A DNA stretch of 64,000 bases from Acidobacteriota bacterium (GCA_018268935.1 JAFDVS010000032.1:17987-81986); one strand, 5' to 3'; shown: positions 1,288 through 28,585, counted from the first letter of the stretch. The notes: a model not told the origin generated them from the letters alone. A program made the numbers and translations.

Positions 1288-1298
1288 GAGATTTCACC

Positions 1299-10562: not shown

Positions 10563-10640
10563 ATGCCTCCAGCATGCGCTCTTCCGGGTCGTGGGCACAT
10601 CGGAAGAATGGGCAGGTGGCAAACTGGCAATTCGGCCAGG

Positions 10641-11498
10641 CTACCGCAGCCCTTTCTTCTTTAGATGCGCGATGAGCGCCGCCGGATCATCGCTGATGAT
10701 GGCGTCCACTTTGGCGGCGATGAGGCGATCCCAATCGTCGGGCGTATTGGCTGTCCAGGGAACCACTTGCATCCCCGCCCGGTGCGCCGCGGCAACGTTT
10801 TCCGGCGTGATCAAGGTGTAGTGCGGCGATACGATTCCAGCGCCTGTGGCGCGCCCCGCAACCACGTAGTCCTTCTCCTTCTCGCCGAACAACGCCGACA
10901 GACGCACCGCAGGCAGCCGCTTCTTCATTGCATCGAGCGTGCGGAAATCGAACGACTGCACGATTACTCGCGCCGTGAGCTTGTGCTTCTCAATCGCCTC
11001 GGCCAGCAGCCGCGCGAACTCCTCCGGCGATGGAGTCAATTGCGGCCGGTCGCGAAAAATCTTGGTCTCGATATTGAACTCGAACTTCCCGCGCGGGGCC
11101 AGCGCCAGCACTTCATCGAGTGCGGGCACGCGCGTGCCGGCAACTGCCTGCTGCTTCGGATAAGCCGGATTCGCTTTCGCCCCGCAGTCCCACCGCTGCA
11201 GCTCGCGAAACGTCATCTCGCGAATGACGCGAGTCCCTTCCGGGCCGCTGCAGTAGGCCGGGTTCATCAACGGATCGTGCGATACCACCAGCACGTTGTC
11301 CTTGGTTACCGCCAGATCGAGTTCCAGCACATCCACACCGGCTTCGATCGCGTAAAGAAACGCCGGCATCGTGTTTTCCGGCCGCATGGCGCGCGCCCCG
11401 CGATGCCCGTGTACTTGAATTGGTCCCGCCTCCGCCAGCATCGTCATCGATAGTAGTCCTCCCAACAGGATTCCACCCGCGTTCCATCCAAGTATCAT
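10641..11498 (-). CDS. Glycerophosphodiester phosphodiesterase (GDPD family)
   Basis: HGHRGARAMRPENTMPAF plus ELDLAVTKDNVLVVSHD are classic GDPD motifs. N-terminal hydrophobic anchor. Confidence 0.85.
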   Translation of the reverse strand: MILGWNAGGILLGGLLSMTMLAEAGPIQVHGHRGARAMRPENTMPAFLYAIEAGVDVLELDLAVTKDNVLVVSHDPLMNPAYCSGPEGTRVIREMTFRELQRWDCGAKANPAYPKQQAVAGTRVPALDEVLALAPRGKFEFNIETKIFRDRPQLTPSPEEFARLLAEAIEKHKLTARVIVQSFDFRTLDAMKKRLPAVRLSALFGEKEKDYVVAGRATGAGIVSPHYTLITPENVAAAHRAGMQVVPWTANTPDDWDRLIAAKVDAIISDDPAALIAHLKKKGLR

Positions 11499-11537
11499 GA
11501 AGAAAGAATAGCGAACTGTTGGGAGGTCTTATATTTC

Positions 11538-12869: not shown

Positions 12870-12884
12870 TTATTCAAAGTTTCG

Positions 12885-12913
12885 TTGACTATATCTAACT
12901 TCGATGCTAAGAT
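12885..12913 (+). promoter_or_regulatory. Near-consensus sigma70 promoter of the PIN toxin operon
   Basis: TTGACT (12885..12890), 17-nt spacer, TAAGAT (12908..12913). The ATG is at 12932 with a GGTGGAGG SD. Confidence 0.55.
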
Positions 12914-12931
12914 CAAAGGTGGAGGCCTACC

Positions 12932-13453
12932 ATGGCAACACCTGCCTTGGCACTGTTACGGAACGAAACCAGTTGCGGCGATGAAATCTGGATAGCGACA
13001 GCTTTGCTCACGCGGGAGCGTCCGGCTGAGCCAGACTACTCGGTGGAAGACATCCTCGCCCGCGCCGCGCAGGAGAACATCCATGGCTCGGTGCGCAAGG
13101 GGTTGGAAGGCTATGCGCGGGTGCATTGCTGTGCCAACAAGCCGCCCAGTCCGTCGGCGCTGAAGATGCTCTATGCCACTGGGCGGAATCGCCGCCGTCT
13201 CTATCGCCCCGGTGATGATTACCACCCTGGGCGCACCGGGCGCAGCATCCCCGCGCTCACCGACATCCCCGATAGGTACCACGAATTAGTGGAGTGGTGG
13301 CTCAATCAACTGGCTTCTTTGCCGCCAGTTGCAAAGCCTCCTGTGAAGTCTTTCCTGAAGGCGATGGAAGAGCTGCGGGATGCCGGCCAGGGTACCTGGA
13401 AGGGTGTGGACGCCGACGCCTACGTCCGTGAATTGCGTGAGGGCTGGGATTGA
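12932..13453 (+). CDS. Hypothetical protein, putative atypical antitoxin partner of the PIN toxin
   Basis: 173 aa. GGTGGAGG SD 6 nt upstream of the ATG. The stop overlaps the PIN gene start (TTGA). I recognise no AbrB/RHH/Phd motif. Confidence 0.5.
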   Translation: MATPALALLRNETSCGDEIWIATALLTRERPAEPDYSVEDILARAAQENIHGSVRKGLEGYARVHCCANKPPSPSALKMLYATGRNRRRLYRPGDDYHPGRTGRSIPALTDIPDRYHELVEWWLNQLASLPPVAKPPVKSFLKAMEELRDAGQGTWKGVDADAYVRELREGWD

Positions 13454-13875
13454 GCCGCATTTTCCTCGATACGAACATCTTCATCTACTTCTACGAAGAT
13501 GCCGGCCCAATGACCGGCCTCACCCGCAGCCTCTTCGAACGGCTCGACCGCCGCGGCGATCAGATTGTCACCTCGGCGCTCACCATCGGCGAACTGCTGG
13601 TTCATCCTCTGCGCATGGGCAACGACAAGCTGGCGGCTCTGTATGAGAAGGTGCTGCAACCACCGGCCATCGAAATCGTCCCCTTCGACCGCGCCTGCTC
13701 GACAGCCTTTGCCCGCATCCGCCTCGACAAATCCATCAAGCCGCCGGACGCGATTCAGCTTGCCTGCGCGGCCACCGCACGCTGCGATCTCTTCCTCACC
13801 AACGATCAAAGGCTGACGGGGAAGATTGTGCCGGGGCTGCAATTCATTTCGGCGCTGGAACAAGCGCCTGTATAG
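13450..13875 (+). CDS. vapC: PIN-domain ribonuclease toxin (VapC-like)
   Basis: IFLDTNIFIY (Asp1), TIGELL (Glu), PPDAIQLA (Asp) and LFLTNDQRL (Asp) give the full PIN acidic quartet. Confidence 0.85.
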   Translation: MSRIFLDTNIFIYFYEDAGPMTGLTRSLFERLDRRGDQIVTSALTIGELLVHPLRMGNDKLAALYEKVLQPPAIEIVPFDRACSTAFARIRLDKSIKPPDAIQLACAATARCDLFLTNDQRLTGKIVPGLQFISALEQAPV

Positions 13876-13890
13876 GGGTATAAATGTGAG

Positions 13891-13923
13891 AAGGGCCCCG
13901 GAGCTGGGAACTCAGGGGCCCTT
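13891..13923. terminator. Strong GC hairpin between convergent genes
   Basis: AAGGGCCCCGGAG / CTCAGGGGCCCTT: a 13-position stem with 12 pairs and 1 mismatch, 7-nt loop CTGGGAA, 16 nt after the PIN stop. No adjacent U-tract on the plus strand. Confidence 0.4.
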
Positions 13924-14007
13924 AGAGGGGCTATGAACGGCGAGCTGGGCCTCGCCGCCGAGGATGCTGATAAGTCGATGACGACTTATATAAGTGCCCT
14001 TATACAG

Positions 14008-14032
14008 TGCACGGGCCGTGCCAAACTTTTTT
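14008..14032 (+). terminator. Weak terminator-like hairpin plus T6
   Basis: GCACG-GGC-CGTGC (14009..14021), then CAAAC and TTTTTT (14027..14032). Confidence 0.3.
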
Positions 14033-14110
14033 CCTCGTAAGTGATTGAAAAATCATGGGCGGGCCAGGAAAATCTTGGGTCAAATGACCACTTTGAGCGA
14101 TTTCACTCAC

Positions 14111-14392
14111 CTACCCCTCGTAGGGAAACTTCCGCACCATCTCCATACACCCCGATAACGCCTGTAACAGCGTCGTCCCCCACCCGCATGGCGTCACCGG
14201 CGCCGTATTCTGATTCACCTGCTTGTCCGTCCGCGCGAAAAACTTCATCGCCGGATCCTTCGGCGTCAGATACTCCAGCACCGTGATCAGGAACTCCACG
14301 TCCTCCCCGTTCACCTGCTTCACCATCGAAAAGTGATGGACCTGCGCCAATTGCTCGCTACGGTCCCGTTGTGCAAATTCCCACTCAGCCAA
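14111..14392 (-). CDS. Small hypothetical protein
   Basis: The track ORF is 14111..14449. AGGAGG (14403..14398) lies 5 nt before TTG 14392. No recognisable family. Confidence 0.35.
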   Translation of the reverse strand: MAEWEFAQRDRSEQLAQVHHFSMVKQVNGEDVEFLITVLEYLTPKDPAMKFFARTDKQVNQNTAPVTPCGWGTTLLQALSGCMEMVRKFPYEG

Positions 14393-14561
14393 TTTCGCCT
14401 CCTGTTCTTCAAAGGAACACGCGCAAAACGGAGCCCGCCCGCGCCACAATGCAACCGCGTGTTCCTTCCGTAGTCACGGCGCGGAGCGTGCCCTTTGCGC
14501 TTTGCGAACGCAATCCCGGATTATAACTCGTCCGCCCTCCAATGGTAGAATCCAATCGTCG

Positions 14562-17483
14562 ATGCATCGCATGTTGGAATCTGCCGGGCTGCGCAACCGG
14601 GAGCGCGCTCTGGCCAATTTGTCCGGGTTCATGCCTCAGCTTTCCGACGAACTGCAGGCCCGCGTTATCTCCCTCATGGCCAATTGCCCGGACCCCGATT
14701 CGGCGCTCCACTACATGGCCCGCTTCGCCTCCGGCAACCCGCCCGATTTCCACCGCCTGATGGCCAATCCAGGCCTCATTTCGTCCTTTGTCACCGTCTT
14801 CGCCCAAAGCAAATTCCTCTCCGAGGAGATCCTCCTGAACTCCTCCTGGATCGAGCAGATCGTCGCCGACCGTGACTTCCATCGCATGCTGTTTCCCGAA
14901 GAGATGGAACTGCGGCTGGAGGAATTCCTCCTCCAGCACGGCACGGGCGTGCCCGACGCGCTTCACGTGGCCCAGTTTCGCCGCCAGCAGATTCTCCGCA
15001 TCCTGCTGCGCGACGCTACCGGCATCTGCAACCTGGCCGAGACCACCGAAGAGCTCTCCAATCTCGCCGATGCCATCCTCCATGTCACCTTCCGCCACAT
15101 CCGCGACGAACTCACCAAGCGTCACGGCCCACCCTGCTATCTGGACCGCGCCGGCGTCGTCCGCCAGTGCGAGTTCAGTGTGCTGGCGCTGGGGAAGCTG
15201 GGCGGTCAGGAGCTGAACTACAGCTCCGATATCGACCTGATGTTTCTCTATTCCGCCAACGGCGATACCGCCGGTGAGCGGTCCATCTCGAACAAGGAGT
15301 TCTACAAAAAAGCCGCCGTCCAATACACGGAATTGCTTTCCACTTACACCTCGGAGGGCATGTGCTACCGCGTCGATCTGCGTCTGCGCCCGGAAGGCAA
15401 GCTGGGCGAGCTCTGCATCTCCACGGAAGGCGCCAAAACCTACTACCGAAAACGCGCCCGCGACTGGGAACTGCAGATGCTCATCAAAGCGCGTGTGGCC
15501 GCCGGAGACCGCGCCCCGGGCAGGGAACTGCTGGAGTTTGTCGAGCCGCTCATCTACTCCTCCACGCTCGATTTTTCGGCCGTGGAAGCCGTGTCGCAAA
15601 CGCGTGAACGCATCCAGGAAAAGCTGCAGCAGCGCAAGCCGGGGATGCGCGAGATCGACATCAAGCTGGCGCGCGGCGGAATTCGCGACATCGAATTCCT
15701 CGTGCAGTGCCTACAACGCCTCCACGGCGGCCGCGAGCCCTGGGTCCGCCATGGCGGCACGCTCCACGCTCTGTTCCGCCTCCGCGACAAGAATCTGCTT
15801 TCCGATGTGGAATACTCCCGCCTCTGTTCGGCATACGAATTCCTGCGTCACCTGGAACACCGCCTGCAATTTGAAGAAGACCGGCAAACCCATACCCTGC
15901 CGCAAGGCCGCGAAGCCCTCGATGTCCTCGCCCGCCGCATGCCTGTGCAGGAGTTGGGAAGCCAGCCTACAGCGGCCCGCCTGATGAGCCGATTGAACGA
16001 GTACTTCGATGAGGTGCGCGAGATCTACGAGCGCGTCATCCACGCCCAACAGCCGATGTATTACTCCACGCCCAACCCTACGCCGGAGCCCGCGCCCGCC
16101 TCCGAGCCCGATCACGCACACACCCGAGGCGACGGGCTGGACGGGAATCTCATCCGCTTCCTTGACCAGCGCGCGCCAAGCCTTGCCGCCACCCTCGCTC
16201 ATACCAATATCAAGCGTGGAGGCAAAGCCTTCGCACGCTACCTCGAGTGGGTGGTGCCCCATCCGGAGTGGTTGCAATGGCTCGATTCGGACAACGTGCT
16301 CACCGGCTACCTCACCGATCTGTTCGCCCACAGCCTGTATCTCTCCGATCAGCTGATGAGCCACCCCGATCTGATCGAGGAACTACGTAAGATCCGCAAG
16401 CACCCCGGCCGCGACGCTTCCATCGACGAAGCGCTTGCCATTGACGATCCCAACGATCTGCGCCGCTTTTTCCGCCGTGAGATGTTCCGCATCCAGGCCG
16501 AAAGCGTGTGTCTCGGCTCGAACGTATTCCAGACATTGCTGCGTACCTCTACGCTCGCCGATACGGCCATCCAGTGCGCCTACCGGCTCTCATTGGAAGA
16601 GGTGGTGCAAAGCTACGCGCCACTTACTCCCGGCTATCAACCCACTGATCAAATGATGGTTATCGCCCTCGGGCGGCTGGGCATGCGCGAATTTGATCTT
16701 GGCTCCGATGCCGACCTGGTGTTTGTGCTCCCCGATGCGGACGGTGGCGAGCATCAGTTCTGGACCCGGGTCGCCGCCAAGATCATTGACCGCCTTTCCG
16801 CCTATACGCGCGAAGGCTTCATGTTCGCCGTCGACACGCGCCTCAGGCCCAACGGCCGCGAGGGAGAACTGGTGCAACTGGCCAGCGCCTATGACACGTA
16901 CTTTACGTCCCGCGCCGAAGCCTGGGAAGGCATCACCTACATGAAAACGCGCGCTGTCGCCGGAAATTTGGAAAAAGGCACGGAATTCCTCAACGCCATC
17001 CAGGAACTGGATTGGCGGCGCTATGGACAAAGTGGGCGCTCGCAGATGCAACTGCGCCAGATGCGGCTGCGGCTGGAGAAGGAACAGGGCGATGAGAATC
17101 CGCTCAAGGCCGGTGCGGGCGGCTACTACGATATCGACTTCGCCCTGATGTTTCTTCGCCTCAAGGGCGCCGGGATATTCTTCAAAGTGCTGAACACGCC
17201 GGAGCGCATAGACATCATCGAAAAGATGGGCCACCTGGAGCGCTCCGACGCGGCTTTCCTGCGCGATGCCGCCACATTCTACCGCGCCCTCGATCATGGC
17301 TTGCGCCTGCTTACCGGGCAGGCCGAAGGCACGCTTCCCAAAGCGCAGGCGCAACTGGAAATGCTCAGCGATCTGGTCTGCCGTTGGACGCCCGATCACC
17401 TGCATGATCAGCCGCTCGAAGAAGAATTGAGCCAGATTCGCCACCGCACACGCGAATTCTTCGACCGCTTGTTTGCCATATGA
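14562..17483 (+). CDS. glnE: Bifunctional glutamine synthetase adenylyltransferase / adenylyl-removing enzyme
   Basis: About 970 aa with two nucleotidyltransferase modules (GKLGGQELNYSSDIDLMFLY and GRLGMREFDLGSDADLVFVL). Start taken at ATG 14562 (MHRMLESAGL). Confidence 0.9.
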   Translation: MHRMLESAGLRNRERALANLSGFMPQLSDELQARVISLMANCPDPDSALHYMARFASGNPPDFHRLMANPGLISSFVTVFAQSKFLSEEILLNSSWIEQIVADRDFHRMLFPEEMELRLEEFLLQHGTGVPDALHVAQFRRQQILRILLRDATGICNLAETTEELSNLADAILHVTFRHIRDELTKRHGPPCYLDRAGVVRQCEFSVLALGKLGGQELNYSSDIDLMFLYSANGDTAGERSISNKEFYKKAAVQYTELLSTYTSEGMCYRVDLRLRPEGKLGELCISTEGAKTYYRKRARDWELQMLIKARVAAGDRAPGRELLEFVEPLIYSSTLDFSAVEAVSQTRERIQEKLQQRKPGMREIDIKLARGGIRDIEFLVQCLQRLHGGREPWVRHGGTLHALFRLRDKNLLSDVEYSRLCSAYEFLRHLEHRLQFEEDRQTHTLPQGREALDVLARRMPVQELGSQPTAARLMSRLNEYFDEVREIYERVIHAQQPMYYSTPNPTPEPAPASEPDHAHTRGDGLDGNLIRFLDQRAPSLAATLAHTNIKRGGKAFARYLEWVVPHPEWLQWLDSDNVLTGYLTDLFAHSLYLSDQLMSHPDLIEELRKIRKHPGRDASIDEALAIDDPNDLRRFFRREMFRIQAESVCLGSNVFQTLLRTSTLADTAIQCAYRLSLEEVVQSYAPLTPGYQPTDQMMVIALGRLGMREFDLGSDADLVFVLPDADGGEHQFWTRVAAKIIDRLSAYTREGFMFAVDTRLRPNGREGELVQLASAYDTYFTSRAEAWEGITYMKTRAVAGNLEKGTEFLNAIQELDWRRYGQSGRSQMQLRQMRLRLEKEQGDENPLKAGAGGYYDIDFALMFLRLKGAGIFFKVLNTPERIDIIEKMGHLERSDAAFLRDAATFYRALDHGLRLLTGQAEGTLPKAQAQLEMLSDLVCRWTPDHLHDQPLEEELSQIRHRTREFFDRLFAI

Positions 17484-18301
17484 GGCTGCTCCCGCTGCTG
17501 GCTGCACTCGCCGTACTGCCTGCGCCAGCCGCGCCTTCCCTCGATCAGGCCTTCGATCGCATGTACCGGCACCAGTTTCCCGCTGCCCTCCAGATTATTG
17601 CCGCCTACACCGAACAACATCCCACCGACCCGCTCGGTTACACCATGCGTGCCGCAGCCAACCTGTTCGCCGAACTCGACCGTCTGCAGATCCTCGAAAG
17701 CGAATTCTTCAACGACGACAAACGCATTGCCGAAAAACGCCAGTTAAAGGCGGACCCTGCCGTGCGCACTGTCATCTACGACAGTCTGGCCAAAGCGCGC
17801 GAACTAGGACAGGCTTCGCTTGCCGCACACCCGCAGGATCGCAACGCCCTGTTTGCCCTGTGCATCTCCTACGGCATCCAAACCGACTACATGGCCCTGA
17901 TCGAAAAGAAGCAGCTTCGCAGCCTCTCGGCGGCGCGCGAATCGCACGACTGGGCGCTCAAACTGCTCAAGCTCGATCCCAATTACTACGATGCCTACCT
18001 CACCACCGGCATCAGCGAATACCTCCTCGGCAGCGTGCCTTTTTTCATCCGTTGGGTGCTGCGCTTTGAGGAAACGAAAGGATCAAAGAATCAGGCCGTG
18101 GCCAACCTGGAGAAGGTGGCGCAGAACGGCCGCTATTTCCGTCCCTTCGCCAAGGTTCTGCTCGCCATCATTTCTCTGCGTGAGAAAAAACCTCTGGAGG
18201 CGGAGATGCGGCTCGCGGAGCTGCATCGCGAGTTCCCGGAGAACCCGCTGTTCAGGAAAGAGATGGAAAAGCTCGCCCAGCGCCGCGCCCTGCGCCGGTA
18301 G
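17480..18301 (+). CDS. Secreted helical (TPR-like) hypothetical protein
   Basis: ATGA overlap with the glnE stop. Signal peptide MRLLPLLAALAVLPAPAAP. Helical repeat composition. Confidence 0.6.
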   Translation: MRLLPLLAALAVLPAPAAPSLDQAFDRMYRHQFPAALQIIAAYTEQHPTDPLGYTMRAAANLFAELDRLQILESEFFNDDKRIAEKRQLKADPAVRTVIYDSLAKARELGQASLAAHPQDRNALFALCISYGIQTDYMALIEKKQLRSLSAARESHDWALKLLKLDPNYYDAYLTTGISEYLLGSVPFFIRWVLRFEETKGSKNQAVANLEKVAQNGRYFRPFAKVLLAIISLREKKPLEAEMRLAELHREFPENPLFRKEMEKLAQRRALRR

Positions 18302-18403
18302 CACATTGCGCCGGTTGCGACTTTTGGGCTCCGTCGCGCATCCTTGATACTTTGGTAGTAGGAGTCCGTTATCCCCACCCAGGCTGAATTTCGCATCCAA
18401 GGC

Positions 18404-20527
18404 ATGGATTGTGCCGAAGAAGTGGCCTTGCTGCGCCGCGAATTGCACGACATGCCCGGCATCGTCGACCTCAAGTTCGACGTGATGAAAGCCAAGATGG
18501 TGGTGGACTTCGATCCTAAGAAAACCAGCCCGGGCAGCATTACGGCGGCGGTCGCCCGCACCGGGATGAAGTGCCAGCCTTTCCGCGATCAGATCCAGGC
18601 CGAGCCCTGGTGGCAGCATCACGGGCGCACCATCCTCACTGCGCTCAGCGGTCTCGCGGTGGTCGGCGGCGCCGTGGCGCAATCCGGTTCCACGGCGGAC
18701 TTCCTGCGCTCCCTGCTGGTCCACGAGCATCATCACGAGACCTTCTCTCCGCTGTCCATCGGCTTCTTTCTCATCGCCATGCTCTGCGGCATGTACTACG
18801 CCGCGCCGAAAGCCCTGCAATCGTTGCGAAGGCTCACTCCGGAGATGAACGCCCTGGTGGCGGTGTCCATCCTGGGCGCCGTGATTCTCAACGAGTGGAT
18901 GGAAGGCGCTACCCTCGCTTTCCTTTTCTCGCTCGCCGGGTTGCTCGAAAGCTGGAGCATCTCCCGTGCCCGCAACGCCGTCTCCTCCCTTCTGGAAGTG
19001 GCCCCAAGCGAAGCCACCGTTCTGCATCATGACCACGAGCACCGCATGCCCGCCGATCAGGTGAAGGTGGGCGAAATCGTGCGCATCAAGCCCGGCGAAC
19101 GCATCCCCTGCGATGGCGTCGTCAAAGAGGGCGAGTCGCACGTCAATCAGGCGCTGATTACCGGCGAATCGGTTCCCGTGATCAAAACCCGCGATGCCGC
19201 CGTCTACGCCGGCACCATCAATGGCGATGGCCACCTCGAGGTGCGTGTCACCAAGGCCGCATCCGACACACTACTGGCCCGCATGTTGCGCATGCTCGAA
19301 GGCGCGCAGCATCGCCGCGCCCACAGTGAACAATTCGTGGAGAGGTTCTCCCGCATCTATACGCCAGTCATGTTCGTCCTGGCGATCCTGGTTGCCACGT
19401 TTCCACCGCTTTTTCGCGGTGCTTCGTGGAGCGAATCCGCCTATCACGGCATGGTCATCCTGCTCATCTCCTGCCCCTGCGCGCTGGTGATCTCCACTCC
19501 CGTAACTGTTGTTGCCGCGCTCGCCAGTGCCGCTCGCCGCGGTGTGCTGATCAAAGGTGGAGTTTTCCTCGAGGCCGCCGCCAGCCTCAAAGCCATCGCC
19601 TTTGACAAGACAGGCGTCCTCACCACAGGCTCACCCGAAGTGCAGACCATCCGCACCATGGATGGACTGACCGAAAAAGATGCCTTGCGCCGCCTCGTCG
19701 CACTGGAACAACGCAGTGAACATCCCGTGGGTCATGCCATTGTGCGCCACGCGCGCAAACAGGGGATTCAACCGGTGGCGGTCACCGAGTTTCGCGCCGT
19801 GCAGGGCCGTGGCGCGGAAGCCCTGGTGGCGAACGAGAAATTCTGGGCCGGCAGTCATCGCTTCCTGCACGAAAAAGGCCTCGAACACGATTGGGTCTGC
19901 CGCCAGGTGGACGATCTCGAAGATGCAGGCCACACTGCGTTTCTCTGCGGCACGGAAAAAACTGTCTGGGCCGTGGTGGGCCTCGCCGATCCGTTGCGCA
20001 CGGAAGCACGCGAAGCCATCTCCGCGGTGCAGCACGAAGGCGTGGAGCATGTAGCCATGCTCACCGGCGACAATACTCCCACCGCGAAAGCCGTTGGCGA
20101 ACAACTGGGTATTCCCGATGTACAGGCGGAACTTCTGCCTGAAGAGAAAGCCAAAGCCGTCCAGCGCCTGCGCGAGCGCTACGGCTCAGTCGGCATGGTC
20201 GGCGATGGGATCAACGACGCCCAGGCCCTCGCCAGCGCTACCGTGGGCATTGCCATGGGCCGGCGTTCTACAGACGTTGCCCTGGAGACAGCCGACATTG
20301 TGCTGATGAATGACGATCTGCGCAGCCTGCGTTTTCTCCTTCGCCATGCGCGCCGCGCCTCGGCCGTCATTCGTCAAAACGTGCTGGTGGCTCTCGGTCT
20401 GAAGGCAATCTTCCTGGCGCTGGCGTTTGGAGGCGTGGCAACCCTTTGGATGGCGATTGCCGCGGATATGGGGGGGACTCTTCTGGTGACGTTCAACGGG
20501 CTGCGCTTGCTGCGCGCAACCCGCTGA
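18404..20527 (+). CDS. Heavy-metal (Zn/Cd/Pb-type) P1B-type ATPase
   Basis: HMA motif GMDCAEEV, TM CPC motif (SCPCALVISTP), FDKTGVLT phosphorylation site and GDGINDA hinge. The real start is probably upstream of the listed ATG (see finding). Confidence 0.9.
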   Translation: MDCAEEVALLRRELHDMPGIVDLKFDVMKAKMVVDFDPKKTSPGSITAAVARTGMKCQPFRDQIQAEPWWQHHGRTILTALSGLAVVGGAVAQSGSTADFLRSLLVHEHHHETFSPLSIGFFLIAMLCGMYYAAPKALQSLRRLTPEMNALVAVSILGAVILNEWMEGATLAFLFSLAGLLESWSISRARNAVSSLLEVAPSEATVLHHDHEHRMPADQVKVGEIVRIKPGERIPCDGVVKEGESHVNQALITGESVPVIKTRDAAVYAGTINGDGHLEVRVTKAASDTLLARMLRMLEGAQHRRAHSEQFVERFSRIYTPVMFVLAILVATFPPLFRGASWSESAYHGMVILLISCPCALVISTPVTVVAALASAARRGVLIKGGVFLEAAASLKAIAFDKTGVLTTGSPEVQTIRTMDGLTEKDALRRLVALEQRSEHPVGHAIVRHARKQGIQPVAVTEFRAVQGRGAEALVANEKFWAGSHRFLHEKGLEHDWVCRQVDDLEDAGHTAFLCGTEKTVWAVVGLADPLRTEAREAISAVQHEGVEHVAMLTGDNTPTAKAVGEQLGIPDVQAELLPEEKAKAVQRLRERYGSVGMVGDGINDAQALASATVGIAMGRRSTDVALETADIVLMNDDLRSLRFLLRHARRASAVIRQNVLVALGLKAIFLALAFGGVATLWMAIAADMGGTLLVTFNGLRLLRATR

Positions 20528-20530
20528 CAC

Positions 20531-21079
20531 TTACTTTTTCTTCACCGGCGCAGCTTTCTTCGGCGCGGGCGCCGGACCAGGTTCGACAAGCAACCGCTCC
20601 ACTTCGCGTGCCAGCCCCGCCTGCCCCTGATTGAAGATGGCATCGACACCGGTGAACTGCGACCGTATCATGCCCTTCTTGTCTATGAACACCAGCCACG
20701 GCACGTAGGCCGGCCGCACCAGTGTGTGCTGCATGAATTCCCGTGCTTTGCCATCCGGAGCCGTCCCAATCGGGAAAGGCACCTGATACTGCTGCACGAA
20801 CATCGGAACGTTGGCGTTGTCGTTTACCGCTGCGAACAGCGCCTCAAAACCCTTCGCTTTGTACTGCCTGTAGAATGCGCCCATGACCTGGGCGTGCTGT
20901 TGGCAGTGCGGTCATGTGGTCAGGATGCAGGCGAAACCCAGCACCTTGCCCCGGTAGGAACTGAGGTTGATTTTCTTCCCGTCGGGCAGCGTTACCTCGA
21001 AATCAGGGGCGGGCCGAGGAACTTCGGCGCCCAATAGAGGCAATGCGCCAAGCCCGGCGAGCAATTGGCGTCGTTTCAT
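20531..21079 (-). CDS. Secreted thioredoxin-fold redoxin (AhpC/TSA-TlpA-like) with in-frame TGA (Sec56) in a U-P-H-C redox motif
   Basis: The track lists only 20531..20884. The same frame continues upstream to ATG 21079 with a single TGA (20914..20912): MKRRQLLAGLGALPLLGAEVPRPAPDFEVTLPDGKKINLSSYRGKVLGFACILTT-U-PHCQQH.. A SECIS-like hairpin follows. Confidence 0.6.
20863..20914 (-). promoter_or_regulatory. UGA codon plus candidate bacterial SECIS hairpin
   Basis: mRNA positions +5..+49 after UGA. Lower stem ACUGCC/GGCAGU, internal loop, upper stem CGCCCA/UGGGCG, apical loop GGUCA starting 23 nt after the UGA. Confidence 0.45.
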
Positions 21080-21100
21080 ACTCTTCATTATATGCGGACG

Positions 21101-22132
21101 CTAGCGCTGCACTCGGCCTGAGCCGCCGCCTTTGATCAGCGCCAGCACTTCCGCCGTGCTGAAGCGATTGAAATCGCCCGGAATCGAGTGTTTCAGGCAC
21201 GATGCAGCCACCGCGAATTCGAGCGCCGCCTGGTCGCCGCCCTGCGTCAGCATGCCGTAGATCAGCCCGCCGGCGAAGCAATCGCCGCCCCCGACACGAT
21301 CCACAATATGCGTGATGTCGTAATGGCGGCTGAGCAGAAATTCCTTCCCGTTGTTCAGACACGCCGACCAGCCGTTGTGCGAAGCGCTCTTCGATTCGCG
21401 CAGTGTGATCGCCAGCGCCCTCAGATTCGGATAAGCGTTCATCACCTTCTCCGTGAGCGCCTTGTACGCATCGCGCTCCAGCTTGCCGGAGTGCACGTCC
21501 ACGCCCGCTTCAATGCCCAGCGACATCTGGCAATCTTCTTCATTCGCGATGCCGACATCGGTCAACCGGAACAGGTCCGGCATCACTTCACTGGCCTTCT
21601 TCCCCCACTTCCACAGATTCTTGCGGAAGTTCAAATCGCACGACACCGTGAGTCCCATGTCCTTTGCCGTCTGTGCCGCTTCCAGCGCGAGTGCGGCGGA
21701 ACTGCTGCTGATGGCGGGTGTGATGCCGGTGACGTGGAACCAACCCGCGCCTTCGAATGCCTTCTTCCAATCCACCGCGCCCGGCCCGGCCAGCGAAATG
21801 GAACTGTGCGCGCGATCGTAGAGCACCTTCGATCCGCGCTGATTCGCGCCCGGCTCAACGAAGTAGATGCCGAACCGGCCCGGTCCCCGCACAATGTGTT
21901 CCGTATCCACGCCGAAGCGCCGCATTTCCCCAATGAACGCATCGGAGACGGCATTGTCCGGCGGTAACACCGTGACATAGCGGGCCGGATATCCGAAGCC
22001 GGATACCGCCACCGCGACGTTGGCCTCGCCACCGCCGAAGGTTGCCAGAAACTGCGGAGATTGCAGGAGCCGCTCAAAGCCCGGAGGCGCGAGCCGCAGC
22101 ATGATTTCACCAAACGACACAACAGGTTTCAT
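21101..22132 (-). CDS. kdgK: PfkB-family sugar kinase (2-dehydro-3-deoxygluconokinase-like)
   Basis: [29 protein letters not shown]-terminus and C-terminal [10 protein letters not shown] (PfkB signature 2). Confidence 0.75.
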
Positions 22133-22156
22133 AAAACCTGGATTGTAACAAACGCC

Positions 22157-22831
22157 CTACTTCGCCGCCTTCTTCGCCGCCATCTTCACCGGGTTCCCCT
22201 TGTCGTCGGTGGAGAACGTCTGCGATTGGAACGTCAGGAACAATGCGAACCACTTGTTCCCGCTGTATTCAATCATCAGGCAGCCGTCCTGCCATGTGCC
22301 GTTGTCCTTCTTCCACTTGCCGCTGTTGCCCTGGTTCATGTGGATGTCGTGAATCCCGTTACCCGGCTTGAAGTGGAAATACTGATCCTTCTTCTTCTTC
22401 TCCGGCCCCCACTTTTCTCCAAACGCGTAAATGACGGCTTTGTCATCGTCCATGGCGGCCTTCATGCGATCTTCCAGGGTGTCCTTCAGATCGTTCTTCG
22501 CCCCAGGCTTGTCGGGCGGAACAGGAACCATCTTCGTTGGATCGGCGATTCCCCCGCGGACAAAATCCTGCGCAATCCCGCCGGGTTTGCTCTTCAAAGC
22601 CGAATAACCGTTCTTCGCCGCCTTCAACGCTTTCGTCAGCGAAGATGGCAGTTGATCCACCGACTGGAACAGCAAGTCGGATGGCGCATTGGGAGCCGAT
22701 GATTTCACATTCACCGCAATGCGGTGCTGCGTCTTTCCATCCGTCACCAGGATCTGGTAATGATCATCGTCGGCATCGCGCAGCCTTCCGATGGGCCGGC
22801 CTTTTAACACTCCGTATTGCTTCAGTGGCAT
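22157..22831 (-). CDS. DUF2278-family protein (YukJ-like)
   Basis: Start taken at Met13 (MPLKQYGVLKGRPIG...DDDHYQILV), which matches my memory of the DUF2278 N-terminus. Confidence 0.7.
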   Translation of the reverse strand: MPLKQYGVLKGRPIGRLRDADDDHYQILVTDGKTQHRIAVNVKSSAPNAPSDLLFQSVDQLPSSLTKALKAAKNGYSALKSKPGGIAQDFVRGGIADPTKMVPVPPDKPGAKNDLKDTLEDRMKAAMDDDKAVIYAFGEKWGPEKKKKDQYFHFKPGNGIHDIHMNQGNSGKWKKDNGTWQDGCLMIEYSGNKWFALFLTFQSQTFSTDDKGNPVKMAAKKAAK

Positions 22832-22890
22832 GTCAAGATAGTGACCGCCGCGCCCGCATCGTTTCACCGGCGGTGAGATAATGTCCAGTC

Positions 22891-24846
22891 ATGCTCCGCT
22901 TCTCCTGGCTCCTGCTGGCGCTACCCGCCTTGGCGCAAAACGACACCGGCTGGACGCCCGAACACTCCATGCGAGTGCAGAAGGTGGCCGACGTCGTCCC
23001 CTCTCCTGACGGCAGCATGGCCCTATGGACGCAGACACGCGCCATTATCGAGCCCGAGAAAAGCGAGCAACTCACTCACATCTTCCTCTGGCGCAACGGA
23101 AAGGCGATCCAACTGACCCGCGGCGACAAGAGCGCGCAGGACCCGTCGTTCTCGCCCGGCGGAAAGTGGGTCTTCTTCACATCAGACCGCTCCGGCAAGA
23201 AGAACCTCTACCGGCTTCCGCTCGATGGTGGCGAAGGGGAAATGTTGACTGATTGGAAAGGAGCGTTGGGCCCCTACCGTGTCTCGCCTGACGGCAAGAC
23301 GATTGCCTTCACCGCCGCTGAGCCCGACCCGGATGAGGAAAAAGCGCGGAAAGAGAAACGCGACGTGAAGGTGATCGACGACCGCCCGCGCAATCACTCC
23401 CTCTGGCTCGTCACCGCGGAACCCGATGCCGCCGGTAAGCGCGCTCCGCGCAAAGCCGCATCGGGCAGTTTTCACATCGGCGCCTTCCGCTGGTCGCCCG
23501 ATTCGCGCCGCATCGCCTTCGAACAGCGTCCTACCCCTGACTTCAACGATGGCCGCCGCGCCGATCTTTCCGAACTCGATATCGAAAGCGGGGTCATCAA
23601 ATCCATCGCCAACGGCGCAGCCACCGAAACGCAGCCGCGTTACTCCCCTGATGGCCGGTTCCTCGCTTTCGTGAAGAGTACCGATAGCGCCTCCACACTC
23701 GATGGCTCCCGCATCGCTCTGCTCGATCGCACCAGCGCTGCCGTGCGATTGCTTCCCGCCTCATCCGAGGAACGCCCGCAACTCCTCGATTGGTCGCCGG
23801 ATTCCCGCCGCATCTTCTTTACGGAGCCAAATCGCACACGCTCCGCAGTCTATGCGATGCCGCTCGATGGGCCGCCTGTGCTCAAGCACTCGCCGGAGAA
23901 GGGTATGCTCCGCCTGGAGGATGCCTTCAGCCGAGATGGTCTCTGGGCCGGCGCCGTGGCCGAGTCCGCCACCCAGCCCATCGAAGCGTTTCTCTTCCAG
24001 ATGGATACGAAGCAGACTACTCAGATCAGCCAGGCCAACGCCGCCCTGCCGAAACTCCCGCTGGGCGAAACACGTGTGATCCGCTGGAAATCGCGCGATG
24101 GAGCCGAAGTGGAAGGGATACTCACTCTGCCCACCGGATATGAGAAAGGCAGGATGTACCCCCTCGCACTCATCATTCACGGCGGCCCGGCGGGCATCTT
24201 CGCCGAAACGTTCATCGGCGCTCAGGGAGTGCAATCGGTGGCGGCCTTCGCCGCAAAGGGATACGTCGTGCTGAGGGCCAATCCACGTGGCTCCATCGGT
24301 TACGGGCTCAAGTTCACGCGCGCCAATCTCAAGGATTGGGGCGGCGGCGACTACCAGGACATCATGTCCGGCGTCGACCATCTCATCGCCCAAGGCATCG
24401 CCGACCCCAATCGCATGGCCGTCATGGGCTGGAGCTACGGTGGCTACATGACATCCTGGATCATCTCGCAAACCGGGCGCTTCAAGGCCGCCATTGTCGG
24501 CGCCGGAATCACCAACCTCTGGAGTATGTGGGGCACCAACGACATCCCCAGCACCCTGGATGATTACTTCGCCGGCTCCCCTTGGGATCAACCCGAGCTC
24601 TATCGCCAGCGCTCCGGCCTCTTCCACGCCAAACAGGTCAAGACTCCGACGCTCTTCCTGCATGGCGAAGCCGATCTGCGCGTCCCCATCGGCCAAGCCT
24701 ACGAGTATTACCATGCGCTGAAACAACTCGGAGTAACCACCAAGATGGTGGCCTATCCACGCACTCCGCACGGACCGCAGGAACCGAAGTTCCAACTCGA
24801 CGTTATGCAACGCCACATCGATTGGGTGGAGAAATACACGAAATGA
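22891..24846 (+). CDS. S9-family serine peptidase (beta-propeller plus prolyl-oligopeptidase catalytic domain)
   Basis: Signal peptide. TolB-like propeller repeats (SPDG..). GWSYGGYM nucleophile elbow. C-terminal HGEADLRVP and PRTPHG (Asp/His). Confidence 0.85.
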   Translation: MLRFSWLLLALPALAQNDTGWTPEHSMRVQKVADVVPSPDGSMALWTQTRAIIEPEKSEQLTHIFLWRNGKAIQLTRGDKSAQDPSFSPGGKWVFFTSDRSGKKNLYRLPLDGGEGEMLTDWKGALGPYRVSPDGKTIAFTAAEPDPDEEKARKEKRDVKVIDDRPRNHSLWLVTAEPDAAGKRAPRKAASGSFHIGAFRWSPDSRRIAFEQRPTPDFNDGRRADLSELDIESGVIKSIANGAATETQPRYSPDGRFLAFVKSTDSASTLDGSRIALLDRTSAAVRLLPASSEERPQLLDWSPDSRRIFFTEPNRTRSAVYAMPLDGPPVLKHSPEKGMLRLEDAFSRDGLWAGAVAESATQPIEAFLFQMDTKQTTQISQANAALPKLPLGETRVIRWKSRDGAEVEGILTLPTGYEKGRMYPLALIIHGGPAGIFAETFIGAQGVQSVAAFAAKGYVVLRANPRGSIGYGLKFTRANLKDWGGGDYQDIMSGVDHLIAQGIADPNRMAVMGWSYGGYMTSWIISQTGRFKAAIVGAGITNLWSMWGTNDIPSTLDDYFAGSPWDQPELYRQRSGLFHAKQVKTPTLFLHGEADLRVPIGQAYEYYHALKQLGVTTKMVAYPRTPHGPQEPKFQLDVMQRHIDWVEKYTK

Positions 24847-27062
24847 AACCGCTGCTGCTCCTACTTCTTGCCGCAACATGCTGGGCCGAAAATGTTTCCA
24901 TCGCCGGACTGCGTCAACCGGTGGAGATTCTCCGCGATAAATGGGGCGTACCGCACATCTACGCCAAAACCACCGACGATCTTTTCTTCGCCCAGGGCTA
25001 CATTGCCGCCCGTGACCGGCTGTTCCAGATCGATCTGTGGCGCAGAGTGAACACCGGCAAGCTCGCTGAAATCCTTGGACCTCAGGCCGTCGCCCGCGAC
25101 CGCATCGCGCGGCTGGTCCGATTCCGTGGCGATTGGAACAAGGAATGGGCCACCTACGCCCCCGACGCAAAGCAAATCGTCACCGCTTTCGTGCGAGGCA
25201 TTAACGCCTACATCGACAGCCTCCAGGGCAAGTACCCGCTCGAATTCCGTCTCGCCGGCTATGCCCCCGGCAAGTGGGTTCCGGAAGATTGCGTGGCCCG
25301 TGTCGCCGGATTGCTGATGACTCGCAATCTGCCGCGCGAAGTGGAACGCGCCATCGACATCCGCGAGTATGGCCTCGAAACCATCCAGACCATCCGTCCT
25401 CCCGATCCTTTTGTGCGCCTCGAAATCCCCAAAGGCCTCGACCTGAAGTTGATCGACAACGTGATCCTGAAGGATTTTCAAGCCGCCATCGGGAATGCCC
25501 GCGTCGATACCGAACAGGGCAGCAACAACTGGGTGGTGGATGGAACACGCACCAACACGGGCAAGCCGCTGCTCGCCAACGATCCCCATCGCCCCATGAA
25601 CATCCCGTCTCTGCGCAAGACTGTGCACCTGGTAGGACCGGGTTGGAATGCGTTCGGCGCCGGTGAGCCTGCGCTTCCTGGCATCGCTCTCGGCCACAAC
25701 GAAGACATTGCCTTTGGCTTCACTATCGTTGGCATCGACCAGGGCGATCTCTACGTCGAGAAACTGAACCCATCCAACGCCAATGAATACTGGCATAAAG
25801 GCTCCTGGCGCAAGATGACTGTCGAGCATGAAAAGGTCGCCGTGAAAGGCCGCGGCGAACAATCAGTGGATCTGAAGTTCACCGTCCACGGACCCGTGAT
25901 CTACGAAGATGGCAACAGCCACCGCGCCTATGCGCTTCGCTGGGTCGGGGCCGAGCCCGGTGGCGCCGGCTACATCGCCGCCCTCGCCACTGCCCGCGCC
26001 AGGAACTGGAATGAGTTCACCAAAACCGTGGAAAACTACCTGGTGCCATCAGAGAACATTATTTACGCGGACCGCACGGGCAACATCGGCTGGATCGCTT
26101 CCGGCCTCGCGCCCGTTCGCAAGAATTGGAATGGACTGCTGCCGGTCCCCGGTGACGGTGATTACGAATGGAGCGGCTATCTTCCACTGAAGGATCATCC
26201 CATCGAGTACAACCCGCCGCGCCACTACATCGCCACCGCCAATCACAACATCCTTCCCAAGGGCTATGCGCATGCGTTGGGTTATGAGTGGGCCGCACCT
26301 TTCCGCTACCAGCGCGTCGACGAGATGCTGAAGGGTGGTGCGAAGGTCACCATCGACGACTTCATCCGCATGCAACAGGATGTCACCAACCTCCTCGCCC
26401 GGCGCTTCCTTGCCGTGATTCGCAAGCACGCGCCCAAAGCATCAGCTGAGATGAAGCCCGTCTATGAGCGCATGCTGAAGTGGGATGCGCGGATGACCGT
26501 GGAATCCACAGAGGCCGCTCTCTACGCCGTTTGGATCACGCGGATCAATGAGTTCCTGCTCAATTCCCCAGCGGCTTCGCGCCTGGACCCTGTCGCCGCC
26601 ATCGCCATGCTGGAAGCGCAGAAAGACGATCGCGCGCTCCGTCTCAGCTACGCCCGTTCCCTTCAGGAATTGGAGCGTGGACTCGGCCGGAACCAGGCCG
26701 AGTGGACATGGGGCCGCCTCCACACCATCCGCTTCGAGCATCCATTGAAGGTGAACGAGAAGTACGCCGCCAAATTCCATCGTGGCCCCATTCCGCGTCC
26801 CGGCGATGGCAACACGGTCAACGCCGCCAGCGGCGCCAATTTCAAGCAAACCGCCGGAGCCTCTTACCGCCAGATCATCGACCTCGCCGATTGGGATCGC
26901 TCCATGATGACCAACGTGCCGGGAGAATCGGGAGACCCTGACAGCAAACACTACAGTGATCTGCTCGCCGATTGGGCCGCGGGCCGCTACCATCCGATGC
27001 CTTACTCGCGCAAAGCCGTGGAAGCGGCCACCGAAGAACGGATCAATCTCACTCCACGCTAA
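24843..27062 (+). CDS. Penicillin-acylase-family Ntn hydrolase (S45; possible AHL acylase)
   Basis: Start at ATG 24843 (MKPLLLLLLAATCWA), an ATGA overlap with the peptidase stop. DRLFQIDLWRR motif. GSNNWVVDG at the alpha/beta processing site (nucleophile Ser). Confidence 0.85.
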   Translation: MKPLLLLLLAATCWAENVSIAGLRQPVEILRDKWGVPHIYAKTTDDLFFAQGYIAARDRLFQIDLWRRVNTGKLAEILGPQAVARDRIARLVRFRGDWNKEWATYAPDAKQIVTAFVRGINAYIDSLQGKYPLEFRLAGYAPGKWVPEDCVARVAGLLMTRNLPREVERAIDIREYGLETIQTIRPPDPFVRLEIPKGLDLKLIDNVILKDFQAAIGNARVDTEQGSNNWVVDGTRTNTGKPLLANDPHRPMNIPSLRKTVHLVGPGWNAFGAGEPALPGIALGHNEDIAFGFTIVGIDQGDLYVEKLNPSNANEYWHKGSWRKMTVEHEKVAVKGRGEQSVDLKFTVHGPVIYEDGNSHRAYALRWVGAEPGGAGYIAALATARARNWNEFTKTVENYLVPSENIIYADRTGNIGWIASGLAPVRKNWNGLLPVPGDGDYEWSGYLPLKDHPIEYNPPRHYIATANHNILPKGYAHALGYEWAAPFRYQRVDEMLKGGAKVTIDDFIRMQQDVTNLLARRFLAVIRKHAPKASAEMKPVYERMLKWDARMTVESTEAALYAVWITRINEFLLNSPAASRLDPVAAIAMLEAQKDDRALRLSYARSLQELERGLGRNQAEWTWGRLHTIRFEHPLKVNEKYAAKFHRGPIPRPGDGNTVNAASGANFKQTAGASYRQIIDLADWDRSMMTNVPGESGDPDSKHYSDLLADWAAGRYHPMPYSRKAVEAATEERINLTPR

Positions 27063-27757
27063 CCGCGGCGCATCCCTCGACGCAGCAGGAACACCAACCC
27101 CGCGCCGCCAATCATCACAAATGTCGATGGCTCAGGCGTGTTGGAATCCGCGTCCACCCATGTGCGGAAGCCGAAGTCCCATTGGGCAATTCCGGGGATG
27201 GCTGCTGTCCACGAGGTGTAGTTGGTTGTGTTTCCCGCGTTTGCTCCACGGATGAACCCGACTCCGGATGTGTAAGGGTTCGAGTTCAGCAATGCCCCCC
27301 ATCCCCCTTCCAGATACCCGCCCGACCGAACCGCTCGCACAACAATCGCATACTGCGATCCAGCGGTGACTTGAAAGTTCGCGCTCGACACATCTACCGC
27401 TGTCCAACCCGCTGGGGAAATGCCCGGAAATGTCGTCGGCAACGAAGCCGCATTGATCCCGAAGCTGAACAACGGAGTCGTCGGCGGCTCGACGGGCGCA
27501 CCCCAAGTGTTGTTCCACATCTCGACATAGAACGTGCCCGCTTGTGCCGAGTAGTTCCACAACGGGAGGTCAAGCCGCGTCAGCGTTCCCGTGAGACCCG
27601 CGGCAAATACCTGCGATCCTGTCAACCCGGTTGCCCCATTCGGACCAGCGCTAAAATTGGAGATCGCAAAACCGCTCGTCATTCCATTCGGCGCGTTCAC
27701 CTGATCAATGACAGGCGTCGCCATTGCACTGGCTGCCAATGCCAGTCCGCTCATCAT
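27059..27757 (-). CDS. Possible independently translated second PEP-CTERM module (internal ATG-ATG)
   Basis: ATG ATG at 27757..27752 opens a plausible signal peptide with an AMA-TP cleavage site. Same frame as the upstream module. Confidence 0.35.
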   Translation of the reverse strand: MMSGLALAASAMATPVIDQVNAPNGMTSGFAISNFSAGPNGATGLTGSQVFAAGLTGTLTRLDLPLWNYSAQAGTFYVEMWNNTWGAPVEPPTTPLFSFGINAASLPTTFPGISPAGWTAVDVSSANFQVTAGSQYAIVVRAVRSGGYLEGGWGALLNSNPYTSGVGFIRGANAGNTTNYTSWTAAIPGIAQWDFGFRTWVDADSNTPEPSTFVMIGGAGLVFLLRRGMRRG

Positions 27758-28480
27758 GCGCCGCCGCTTCCACAGCACTGCGATTAGCCACGCGCCGCCA
27801 ATCAGCGCCAGCGTCGGTGGTTCTGGCACATCGCCGGTATTCGCAATCGTGAATACCTCCGTGCGGCCCATCAGAAAGTTGGATGTGTAGTCATTTGCCG
27901 ATGGATTCGCTCCCGCAATGCTTACTCCACTGAGGAAACCCGGACCGTAAGTATAGTTCATGGCATACCCAAGTCCTGTTGTCCCACCACTCGTGTGCAG
28001 ATCATGCCCGCCGCCAAATGTTGGTCCATAGGAATTCAAGTTATATGTCTGATAGGGCCCCGCGGGACTCCCCAATATTTGATAGTGGACTCGGGTTTCA
28101 GAAAGGTTGAAAACGAATCCGGTTCGGGCTGCGTCTGGCATCGTGAGGTAATAGCCGCTCATCGCCGCGTTCCAACTGTTGGGATTGTACCCGCCGATGA
28201 TTGCATCTGTCGTGATGCACTGCGTACTGGTTTGGGAAGTGCAGCTCAGTGCTTCGATAACTGTGAATGTCCGCCCCTGATTGTCCGCCGCCGCATGAAA
28301 CGCCGACCAGTTGTCCGGCACCGCATTGCTCGCATAGATTCTCGTCAGGTGCAGATTGCCTTCGCCTAACCAGTCGCCAAGCTGATTCGCATACGCGGAG
28401 GTCAGCAGTGCCGAAGTATCGTATGTGACCGTGGTCGCCGCCAGCGGCAGCGCCGTGAGGAGAAGTGATAGAAAACGCAT
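27059..28480 (-). CDS. PEP-CTERM protein ORF containing two complete signal-peptide/domain/PEP-CTERM modules
   Basis: Start taken at MRFLSLLLTALPLAA (28480). Internal VPEPPTLALIGGAWLIAVLWKRRR is followed directly by MMSGLALAASAMA. Terminal TPEPSTFVMIGGAGLVFLLRRGMRRG. Confidence 0.6.
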   Translation of the reverse strand: MRFLSLLLTALPLAATTVTYDTSALLTSAYANQLGDWLGEGNLHLTRIYASNAVPDNWSAFHAAADNQGRTFTVIEALSCTSQTSTQCITTDAIIGGYNPNSWNAAMSGYYLTMPDAARTGFVFNLSETRVHYQILGSPAGPYQTYNLNSYGPTFGGGHDLHTSGGTTGLGYAMNYTYGPGFLSGVSIAGANPSANDYTSNFLMGRTEVFTIANTGDVPEPPTLALIGGAWLIAVLWKRRRMMSGLALAASAMATPVIDQVNAPNGMTSGFAISNFSAGPNGATGLTGSQVFAAGLTGTLTRLDLPLWNYSAQAGTFYVEMWNNTWGAPVEPPTTPLFSFGINAASLPTTFPGISPAGWTAVDVSSANFQVTAGSQYAIVVRAVRSGGYLEGGWGALLNSNPYTSGVGFIRGANAGNTTNYTSWTAAIPGIAQWDFGFRTWVDADSNTPEPSTFVMIGGAGLVFLLRRGMRRG

Positions 28481-28585
28481 GCGGCGAGCGAAGCATTCTT
28501 CATGCCGCGCTCGCCGCACATCGTTTCAAGTACTTACATCATGCACCCTAACCCGAAGGTTAGAGTGCATCCTAACCGGAGGGCG

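Follow-up and report, generated by a model that had tools for sequence, protein, structure and literature searches.

Introduction

Thioredoxin-fold selenoproteins with a UxxC motif, in which selenocysteine (Sec, U) takes the place of the first cysteine of CxxC, are the commonest bacterial selenoproteins found by computation. Catalogued families include the 'Prx-like thiol:disulfide oxidoreductase' (PF00578, UxxC) and the 'thiol:disulfide interchange protein' (PF13098). The hairpin that serves as selenocysteine insertion sequence (SECIS) in Escherichia coli fdhF is characterized by a SelB-binding GGUC loop closed by an A-U pair and by a bulged U. Exchange between Cys and Sec at redox-active cysteines has been described for bacterial thiol oxidoreductases (PMC1794560). 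Here we analyse a 64,000-nucleotide stretch of DNA from an Acidobacteriota bacterium (GCA_018268935.1, JAFDVS010000032.1:17987-81986), referred to as the window, in which a redoxin gene on the minus strand (20531..21079) is interrupted by a single in-frame TGA at the codon expected for its first redox-active cysteine. We estimate at roughly 88% the probability that an exported thiol-disulfide oxidoreductase of the TlpA/ResA-like type is encoded here by a single intact gene, with Sec as the predicted nucleophilic N-terminal residue of the CxxC motif.

The nearest catalogued kind is the TlpA-like UxxC group (references MGB1650493.1 and MDE0950781.1), with which the redoxin shares a thioredoxin-fold TlpA-like domain, predicted Sec in place of the N-terminal Cys, a UGA followed by a hairpin in the coding region, and widespread Cys homologues. 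As described, the redoxin would be a lineage of its own: the motif is W-U-xx-C or UGC in that group but TT-U-PHCQ here, and the catalogued group comes from marine plankton whereas the window clade comes from soil and freshwater Bryobacterales. The Prx-like (peroxiredoxin-like) selenoproteins of Geobacter and Desulfotalea (PMC1794560) likewise belong to the AhpC/TSA superfamily PF00578, have a UxxC motif with Sec first and show the Cys-to-Sec pattern. However, a BLASTP comparison gives only 33% identity over 57 residues (E 3e-4), a relationship at the level of the superfamily, and those proteins of anaerobic deltaproteobacteria have the motif W-U-P-Y-C, a length of about 215-230 amino acids (aa) and a long N-terminal extension without a signal peptide. 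On account of this weak match and the differences in motif and architecture, membership in the Prx-like family of 2006 was rejected. The 'interchange' family has the motif G-U-I-G-C, unlike the U-P-H-C of the redoxin. Among Cys-containing extracytoplasmic thiol-disulfide reductases, Bacillus subtilis ResA and Bradyrhizobium TlpA give the best structure matches with the CxxC aligned, and they resemble the redoxin in size and have an N-terminal membrane or export segment, as is predicted for it; the redoxin differs from them in the predicted Sec in place of Cys, in its P-H dipeptide, and in scores below the NCBIfam cut-offs. The redoxins compared below thus appear, as judged from their genes, to be a distinct Bryobacterales clade of UxxC thioredoxin-fold selenoproteins, a class already known, and all members identified to date are predicted to carry Sec.

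The gene and its predicted product

The minus-strand frame from ATG 21079 to TAA 20533..20531 comprises 183 codons and contains one internal stop, TGA 20914..20912. The original prediction, made from the sequence alone, had proposed this frame, this start and a product of 182 aa, and translation matched it exactly; the Met at 21079 is moreover conserved as the start in all relatives. Read as Sec, the TGA becomes U56 of the motif U56-P-H-C59, which follows the residues GFACILTT and is itself continued as PHCQQHAQVMG, so that the active-site peptide would be ...ILTT-U-PHCQQHAQVMGAFYR. The putative resolving residue of UxxC, Cys59, is encoded by TGC at 20903..20905 and is invariant across all Sec and Cys forms (Sec forms being here the TGA-carrying sequences). 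The listing of open reading frames (ORFs) cuts the gene in two. One piece of 58 aa (20912..21088) has its ATG start three codons upstream of the conserved Met. The other, the 117-aa fragment that the original prediction had reported as beginning at an internal Met (20531..20884), is a product of stop-to-stop ORF calling, and its ATG is Met66 of the full protein, located inside the SECIS loop.

When Cys is substituted for U, the AhpC-TSA (57.4 bits, E 1.9e-15, cut-off 26) and Redoxin (48.2 bits, E 1.3e-12, cut-off 26.6) models of Pfam both match above their gathering thresholds, which bears out the earlier assignment to the AhpC/TSA-TlpA redoxins. A profile of the family compared with solved structures matched ResA of B. 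subtilis at 2.2e-17 and TlpA at 2.2e-10, in both cases with the CxxC aligned, and its nearest matches also included other TlpA/DsbE-like proteins of the thioredoxin family; Sco (4.5e-6) and peroxiredoxins (about 1e-4) were far weaker. In the ResA chains, the counterpart of the U/C-P-H-C of the redoxin is the active-site motif, which reads CPHC in the top match, 3c71, and differs in the other ResA chains of that search. The NCBIfam models for ResA/TlpA, NF002854 and NF047696, gave 55.7 bits against a cut-off of 170 and 19.5 bits against 230, respectively. Because these scores lie far below the cut-offs, the redoxin is classified from its sequence as TlpA/ResA-like and as an orthologue of neither. 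None of the NCBIfam selenoprotein models matches the redoxin.

The dipeptide P-H between the two redox residues is that of the oxidase DsbA, and the protein may accordingly act either as a reductase or as an oxidase/isomerase. A reading as a peroxiredoxin was rejected: the PxxxTxxC/U motif (PMC13188914) is absent, the residues before U being G-F-A-C-I-L-T-T, which lack the Pro at -7 and the Thr at -3, and peroxiredoxin structures match only at the weak level given above.

Homologues, the TGA column and selection

The 120 matches listed in a protein database search were of two kinds. About 107 of them are full-length proteins (approximately 170-220 aa) with at most 49% identity, and every one inspected carries TTCPHCQ. 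The other 13 are the closest (54-94% identical) and are only 109-128 aa long, covering just the part after the TGA. As the original prediction had proposed in placing the only stop on the N-terminal redox Cys, the TGA column corresponds to the invariant first Cys of C-P-H-C (within TTCPHCQ) in 14 of 14 and 43 of 43 aligned Cys homologues.

The DNA behind the fragment matches was read and species-representative genomes were scanned besides. In the DNA of the relatives, a short ORF always ends 27 nucleotides (nt) before the called fragment, and reading through the TGA recovers a conserved N-terminal part of 55 aa, which consists of a Met, an x-R-R leader, PRP(S/A)PD and, further on, FAC(I/V)(L/M)TT-TGA-PHCQQHAQVM. 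The TGA occupies the identical codon in the window and in nine other loci (L001, L004, L005, L007, L009, L011, L012, L013 and L057), giving ten distinct sequences from unrelated samples with 61-95% amino acid identity over the full length. A further, independent assembly (L068; Logan SRR23459708, 5.2-kb contig) is 100% identical to window 19497..22884, TGA included. When a more distant metagenomic form, L059, is added to the ten, each of the 11 distinct TGA forms has exactly one stop, at the same codon, and no frameshift or other stop. The varied disruptions that would accompany decay, which the original prediction had suggested looking for among relatives, are accordingly not found in them.

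Selection was assessed by Nei-Gojobori comparisons among the ten clade sequences. For the 55 codons upstream of the TGA, synonymous divergence (pS) is 0.63, nonsynonymous divergence (pN) 0.17 and the median ratio of nonsynonymous to synonymous rates (dN/dS) 0.14; for codons +18..+90 downstream the values are 0.63, 0.19 and 0.15, respectively. The two flanks are under indistinguishable purifying selection. Although synonymous sites are essentially saturated, all ten sequences keep the TGA. This equal constraint on both flanks and the invariance of the TGA despite saturation argue that the part before the stop is translated within the same protein as the part after it. In codons +1..+17, where the hairpin described below is located, pS is 0.30, pN 0.05 and median dN/dS 0.12.

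Assemblies carrying the gene include the metagenome-assembled genome (MAG) STL-ACI3 (JAXLQM01), GCA_902826685.1 and GCA_016789755.1, and GCA_009612895.1 is a further candidate. In public annotation the relatives appear as fragments of 109-128 aa that are called 'TlpA family protein disulfide reductase', hypothetical or unnamed; MBL8174860.1 (117 aa, 'TlpA family protein disulfide reductase'), MBL8222633.1 and 11 other clusters are such truncated relatives. The whole clade is systematically mis-annotated in public databases.

The predicted SECIS hairpin

RNAfold reproduced the two-tier hairpin of the original prediction, with the stems as described and, 23 nt beyond the UGA, the start of the loop GGUCA. 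The core (20878..20894, minus strand) consists of an upper stem, CGCCCA (20894..20889) paired with UGGGCG (20883..20878), and the loop GGUCA (20888..20884), and it is supported by RNAfold, RNAalifold and covariation. The lower stem, ACUGCC (20907..20902) paired with GGCAGU (20868..20863), extends the whole hairpin to 20863..20907 in both the minimum free energy (MFE) and the consensus folds. The fold energy is -20.9 kcal/mol over 66 nt (z = -2.1), and the fold of the 43-nt core has z = -0.6. Because such energy is unremarkable for a sequence of 60.6% G+C, the hairpin needs comparative support.

Codons +1..+10 are nearly frozen at the nucleotide level, as only three of them vary, each in one or two sequences, and synonymous divergence in codons +1..+17 is about half that of the flanks. 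In L005, the changes GCC to GCU and GGC to AGC turn a C-G pair of the upper stem into U-A even though they replace a Gly by Ser. The hairpin of L059, CCACUCAG-GUC-CUGAGUGG, is exactly in register with the window SECIS and keeps CAGGUC at the loop, and its upper stem shows two compensatory pair changes relative to the window. Over the 11 sequences of the clade and L059, the six upper-stem pairs are paired in 98.5% of cells and two of the six are doubly changed (three cells); no more than 2 of 500 shuffles attain these values, and in slid controls the paired fraction is 24-46%. Five of the six lower-stem pairs do not vary within the clade; the sixth, at the top, is disrupted in L005 and L011. 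The lower stem is probably accessory because it is not kept in L059.

The consensus for bacterial SECIS elements (bSECIS; PMC13188914) asks for a loop of 3-9 nt, an upper stem of 4-16 bp, at least one G in the first two loop positions, a distance of 16-37 nt from the UGA to the loop and an MFE of -7.5 kcal/mol or lower. The redoxin hairpin falls within all of these limits, with a loop of 5 nt that begins with GG, an upper stem of 6 bp, the above-mentioned spacing of 23 nt and an MFE of -12.1 kcal/mol. Like the E. coli fdhF SECIS, it lies within the coding region immediately behind the UGA, and its apical loop starts with GGUC and is closed by A-U. It differs in lacking the bulged U and in its shorter 6-bp upper stem above an internal loop, and it is predicted to bind SelB.

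The host and the Sec machinery

The window shows 86-88% nucleotide identity and synteny over 10480..30471 with a 1.02-Mb contig of its closest genome, the Bryobacteraceae MAG STL-ACI3, and the named relatives of the redoxin are Bryobacterales. Candidatus Solibacter usitatus, which the NCBI taxonomy places in the same order as the redoxin clade, encodes SelD, SelA and SelB and has eight selenoproteins in strain Ellin6076 (PMC5029168, Tables S1 and S2). Its SelA sequence, taken from the supplement of PMC1794560, was used as a query and found thousands of close homologues, among them HYW45287.1 and HUB83434.1, both named L-seryl-tRNA(Sec) selenium transferase [Bryobacteraceae bacterium]. One of these two records is located on a 144-kb contig of GCA_035509055.1.

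Within the window, none of the approximately 45 larger ORFs is SelA, SelB or SelD. With ARAGORN, the window and 16 loci yielded no tRNA-Sec, and the window no tRNA of any kind.

Proposed mechanism and alternative explanations

According to the proposed mechanism, the redoxin would probably share its mRNA with the upstream pfkB-type kinase and be translated from AUG 21079. When the UGA at 20914..20912 stands in the ribosomal A site, the downstream hairpin would bind SelB-GTP-Sec-tRNASec, and Sec would be inserted in competition with release factor 2 (RF2), after which translation would run to the TAA at 20531. The signal peptide would direct export of a mature protein of about 164 aa. This protein would cycle between a selenolate/thiol and a selenenylsulfide form, and its presumed physiological substrates, the disulfides of envelope proteins, would thereby be reduced or exchanged.

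The reading as a selenoprotein, which was already that of the original prediction, is supported by the invariant Cys of homologues at the TGA column, the TGA orthologues, the selection on both flanks, the agreement with the bSECIS consensus and the compensatory changes. Several observations weigh against it. The energy of the hairpin alone is not significant (z -0.6 to -2.1), and the main clade holds just one compensatory event, which is weak (62 of 500 shuffles). The bulged U of the E. coli fdhF type, which the original prediction had also failed to see, is absent. Rfam returned nothing relevant, either for the whole window at gathering thresholds or in a permissive scan of 20700..21100. To our knowledge, Rfam holds no general bacterial SECIS model. 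In addition, there is no selA, selB, selD or tRNA-Sec within the 64-kb window or the available flanks of the relatives, and no SelA could be tied to any redoxin-carrying assembly by accession or by two context look-ups.

The last of these points also bears on a different kind of decoding, in which the UGA is read through as a residue other than Sec, namely Cys by way of a tRNASec-like tRNACys, or whatever residue a suppressor (allo-)tRNA or near-cognate tRNA supplies, the hairpin then acting as a stimulator. It counts in favour of such a scheme that the Sec machinery is not tied to the same genome and that the base after the UGA of the redoxin gene is C, a context in which termination is weak in E. 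coli. Moreover, tRNASec-like tRNACys species (selC*) are reported as opal suppressors in deltaproteobacteria, and the allo-tRNAs of Acidobacteria may be nonsense suppressors (PMC5389517). However, selC* is reported from anaerobic Firmicutes, Thermodesulfobacteria, Nitrospirae and Proteobacteria, not from Acidobacteria (PMC5389517). The Sec trait is present in the same order and family. The position and loop of the hairpin fit the SelB-type bSECIS model, and the TGA is kept by selection, with no Cys-codon member found in the clade although TGC and TGT are one step away. We regard read-through without Sec as unlikely.

Genuine termination at the TGA is less probable again, and we give it very little weight. 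The locus would in that case be a pseudogene or truly truncated, making at most a leader peptide of 55 aa or a C-terminal fragment of 117 aa. Gene callers and NCBI do annotate just the 117-aa fragment, and when selenium is limiting a share of the ribosomes should stop at the UGA. The dN/dS, which is about 0.14 before as well as after the stop at saturated synonymous sites, nevertheless speaks against a pseudogene, as does a single TGA that is identical in 11 lineages free of frameshifts and other stops. A split at the active site would also wreck the thioredoxin fold, since the fragment would be without the N-terminal residue of CxxC, the strands beta1 and beta2, and the export signal. As for a TGC or TGT turned into TGA by faulty sequencing or assembly, which the original prediction had raised and for which one base difference would suffice, it is contradicted by eleven independent assemblies: the TGA recurs in the identical L068 contig and also in 10 other distinct sequences, obtained from unrelated samples with unrelated assemblers. 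Because the same TGA is found in independent assemblies, such an error is excluded for practical purposes. The preferred reading remains the selenoprotein.

The N-terminal leader and predicted export

By inspection, residues 1-18 of the product (21026..21079, minus strand), MKRRQLLAGLGALPLLGA, form a predicted export signal, and the mature protein would begin at about EVPRPAPDF. The leader opens with a charged n-region in which an RR is invariant, continues with an h-region of Gly, Ala and Leu, and closes with an A-x-A-like end ahead of the invariant PRP(A/S)PD block. A signal-peptide-like N-terminus, again judged by inspection, is kept across all Sec and Cys forms. This segment suggests that the protein is extracytoplasmic, like ResA and TlpA.

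The Arg-Arg pair of the leader, in the context M-x-R-R-x-L/W (Arg3 and Arg4 codons at 21070..21075 of the window), is invariant in 11 of 11 Sec forms (L001-L013, L057 and L059), and most aligned Cys homologues have an ordinary leader without RR. The RR leader might reflect export of the Sec forms by the twin-arginine translocation (Tat) pathway. The hidden Markov model (HMM) for Tat signals gave no match among five leaders tested, and the shortness of the leader (18 aa) together with this lack of a match speaks against Tat-dependent export of the Sec forms. A more ambitious proposal, which we consider doubtful and put forward as speculation, is that the Bryobacterales clade represents an obligately Sec-containing envelope redox enzyme with a DsbA-type U-P-H-C motif, routed to Tat by its twin-arginine leader so that only the folded, full-length protein is exported. 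If this were true, Tat routing would act as quality control against UGA-terminated products. The enzyme would then be an unusual extracytoplasmic, cofactor-free selenoprotein of aerobic soil bacteria, possibly an oxidase or isomerase and not a reductase.

A second putative Sec lineage and the evolution of the family

The metagenomic form L059:789 (contig Ga0335082_10351735) reads TT-TGA-PHCQKTTQV, is 46% identical and represents a separate putative Sec lineage. It came from a metagenome scan whose patterns encoded U as the Cys codons TGY and were hence blind to TGA forms; eight loci were obtained, including L059 and L011. A neighbour-joining tree was built from 11 Sec and 105 Cys forms. Ten of the Sec forms make up one long-stemmed clade without a Cys member, and L059 stands alone within a Cys clade. 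The redoxin family thus holds, on the evidence of its TGA codons, at least two putative Sec lineages among Cys forms, and its tree fits the pattern of Cys/Sec exchange at redox-active cysteines (PMC1794560).

A different TlpA-like gene was seen in a MAG of Candidatus Rokuibacteriota (L023:7882; JBOHQB010000340.1), where a TGA is located at the first Cys of WCxxC (FFWATW-TGA-QTCREE), giving W-U-Q-T-C. A hairpin of 7 bp, GGGAGGA-GUUAC-UCCUUCC, follows, with its loop 16 nt after the UGA. This gene is likely to encode an independent TlpA-like selenoprotein of another phylum.

Gene context and the rest of the window

A PfkB-family sugar kinase gene, KDG-kinase-like according to Pfam and NCBIfam (21101..22132, minus strand), lies upstream, 21 nt from the redoxin start. 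No promoter-like site was found in the gap between them, and the two genes are probably co-transcribed. Synteny with the kinase is found in closer relatives only (L004, L007, L008, L012, L013 and L068) and not in L001, L009 or L011. On the other side, a convergent gene for a heavy-metal P1B-type ATPase (18404..20527, plus strand), which matches Zn/Cd/Pb-type models best, has its stop 3 nt from the redoxin stop; it is kept in L007, L008, L013 and, cut by the contig end, L068, and is absent from distant relatives. A DUF2278 protein is a further neighbour, and the neighbours are not conserved beyond the closest relatives. Cytochrome c maturation, Sco and cytochrome oxidase genes do not neighbour the redoxin. 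A functional partner from gene context was rejected, as the kinase, the DUF2278 protein and the P1B ATPase are not kept beyond the closest relatives.

The window was also screened for other genes split by TGA. A screen based on G+C at third codon positions did not discriminate. A stricter one, which required an intergenic open frame before a TGA-preceded gene, returned the redoxin and one further case at window 13914 (minus strand); the latter was judged to be chance, its G+C being flat over codon positions and its peptide not protein-like.

Among other features of the window, a peptidase S9 ORF (22891..24846, plus strand) and a penicillin amidase ORF (24582..27062, plus strand) overlap by 265 nt as listed; the Pfam match of the amidase starts at residue 113, and its true start is probably well downstream of TTG 24582. 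Beside ABC-transporter genes (34990..39031) lies a gene (39035..39616, plus strand) whose product combines an FmdE domain with a DksA/TraR-type zinc finger at its C-terminus; no NCBIfam model matched it. The window further contains flagellar FlgK- and flagellin/FlgL-like genes and two multihaem cytochrome c7/c3-like proteins, one of them TPR-fused (49..2231, plus strand; 48056..49825, minus strand; 60013..60858, plus strand), two PEP-CTERM proteins (27059..28519 and 52910..53686), and two large TonB-type outer-membrane barrel proteins.

Implications

The selenoprotein described here is of a familiar kind that would not surprise a specialist, and the general picture of how and where Sec is used is unchanged. 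Its recognition corrects a systematic mis-annotation, in which genes of this clade have been deposited as 'TlpA family' fragments of 109-128 aa or as hypothetical proteins. The conserved SECIS with its natural compensatory variants could be used for studying SelB recognition outside model organisms. With two predicted Sec lineages inside one Cys family, the redoxins are another case in which Cys and Sec have been exchanged at the residue that opens the CxxC motif, and they add a well-supported clade from the abundant soil Acidobacteriota of the order Bryobacterales to the bacterial selenoproteome.

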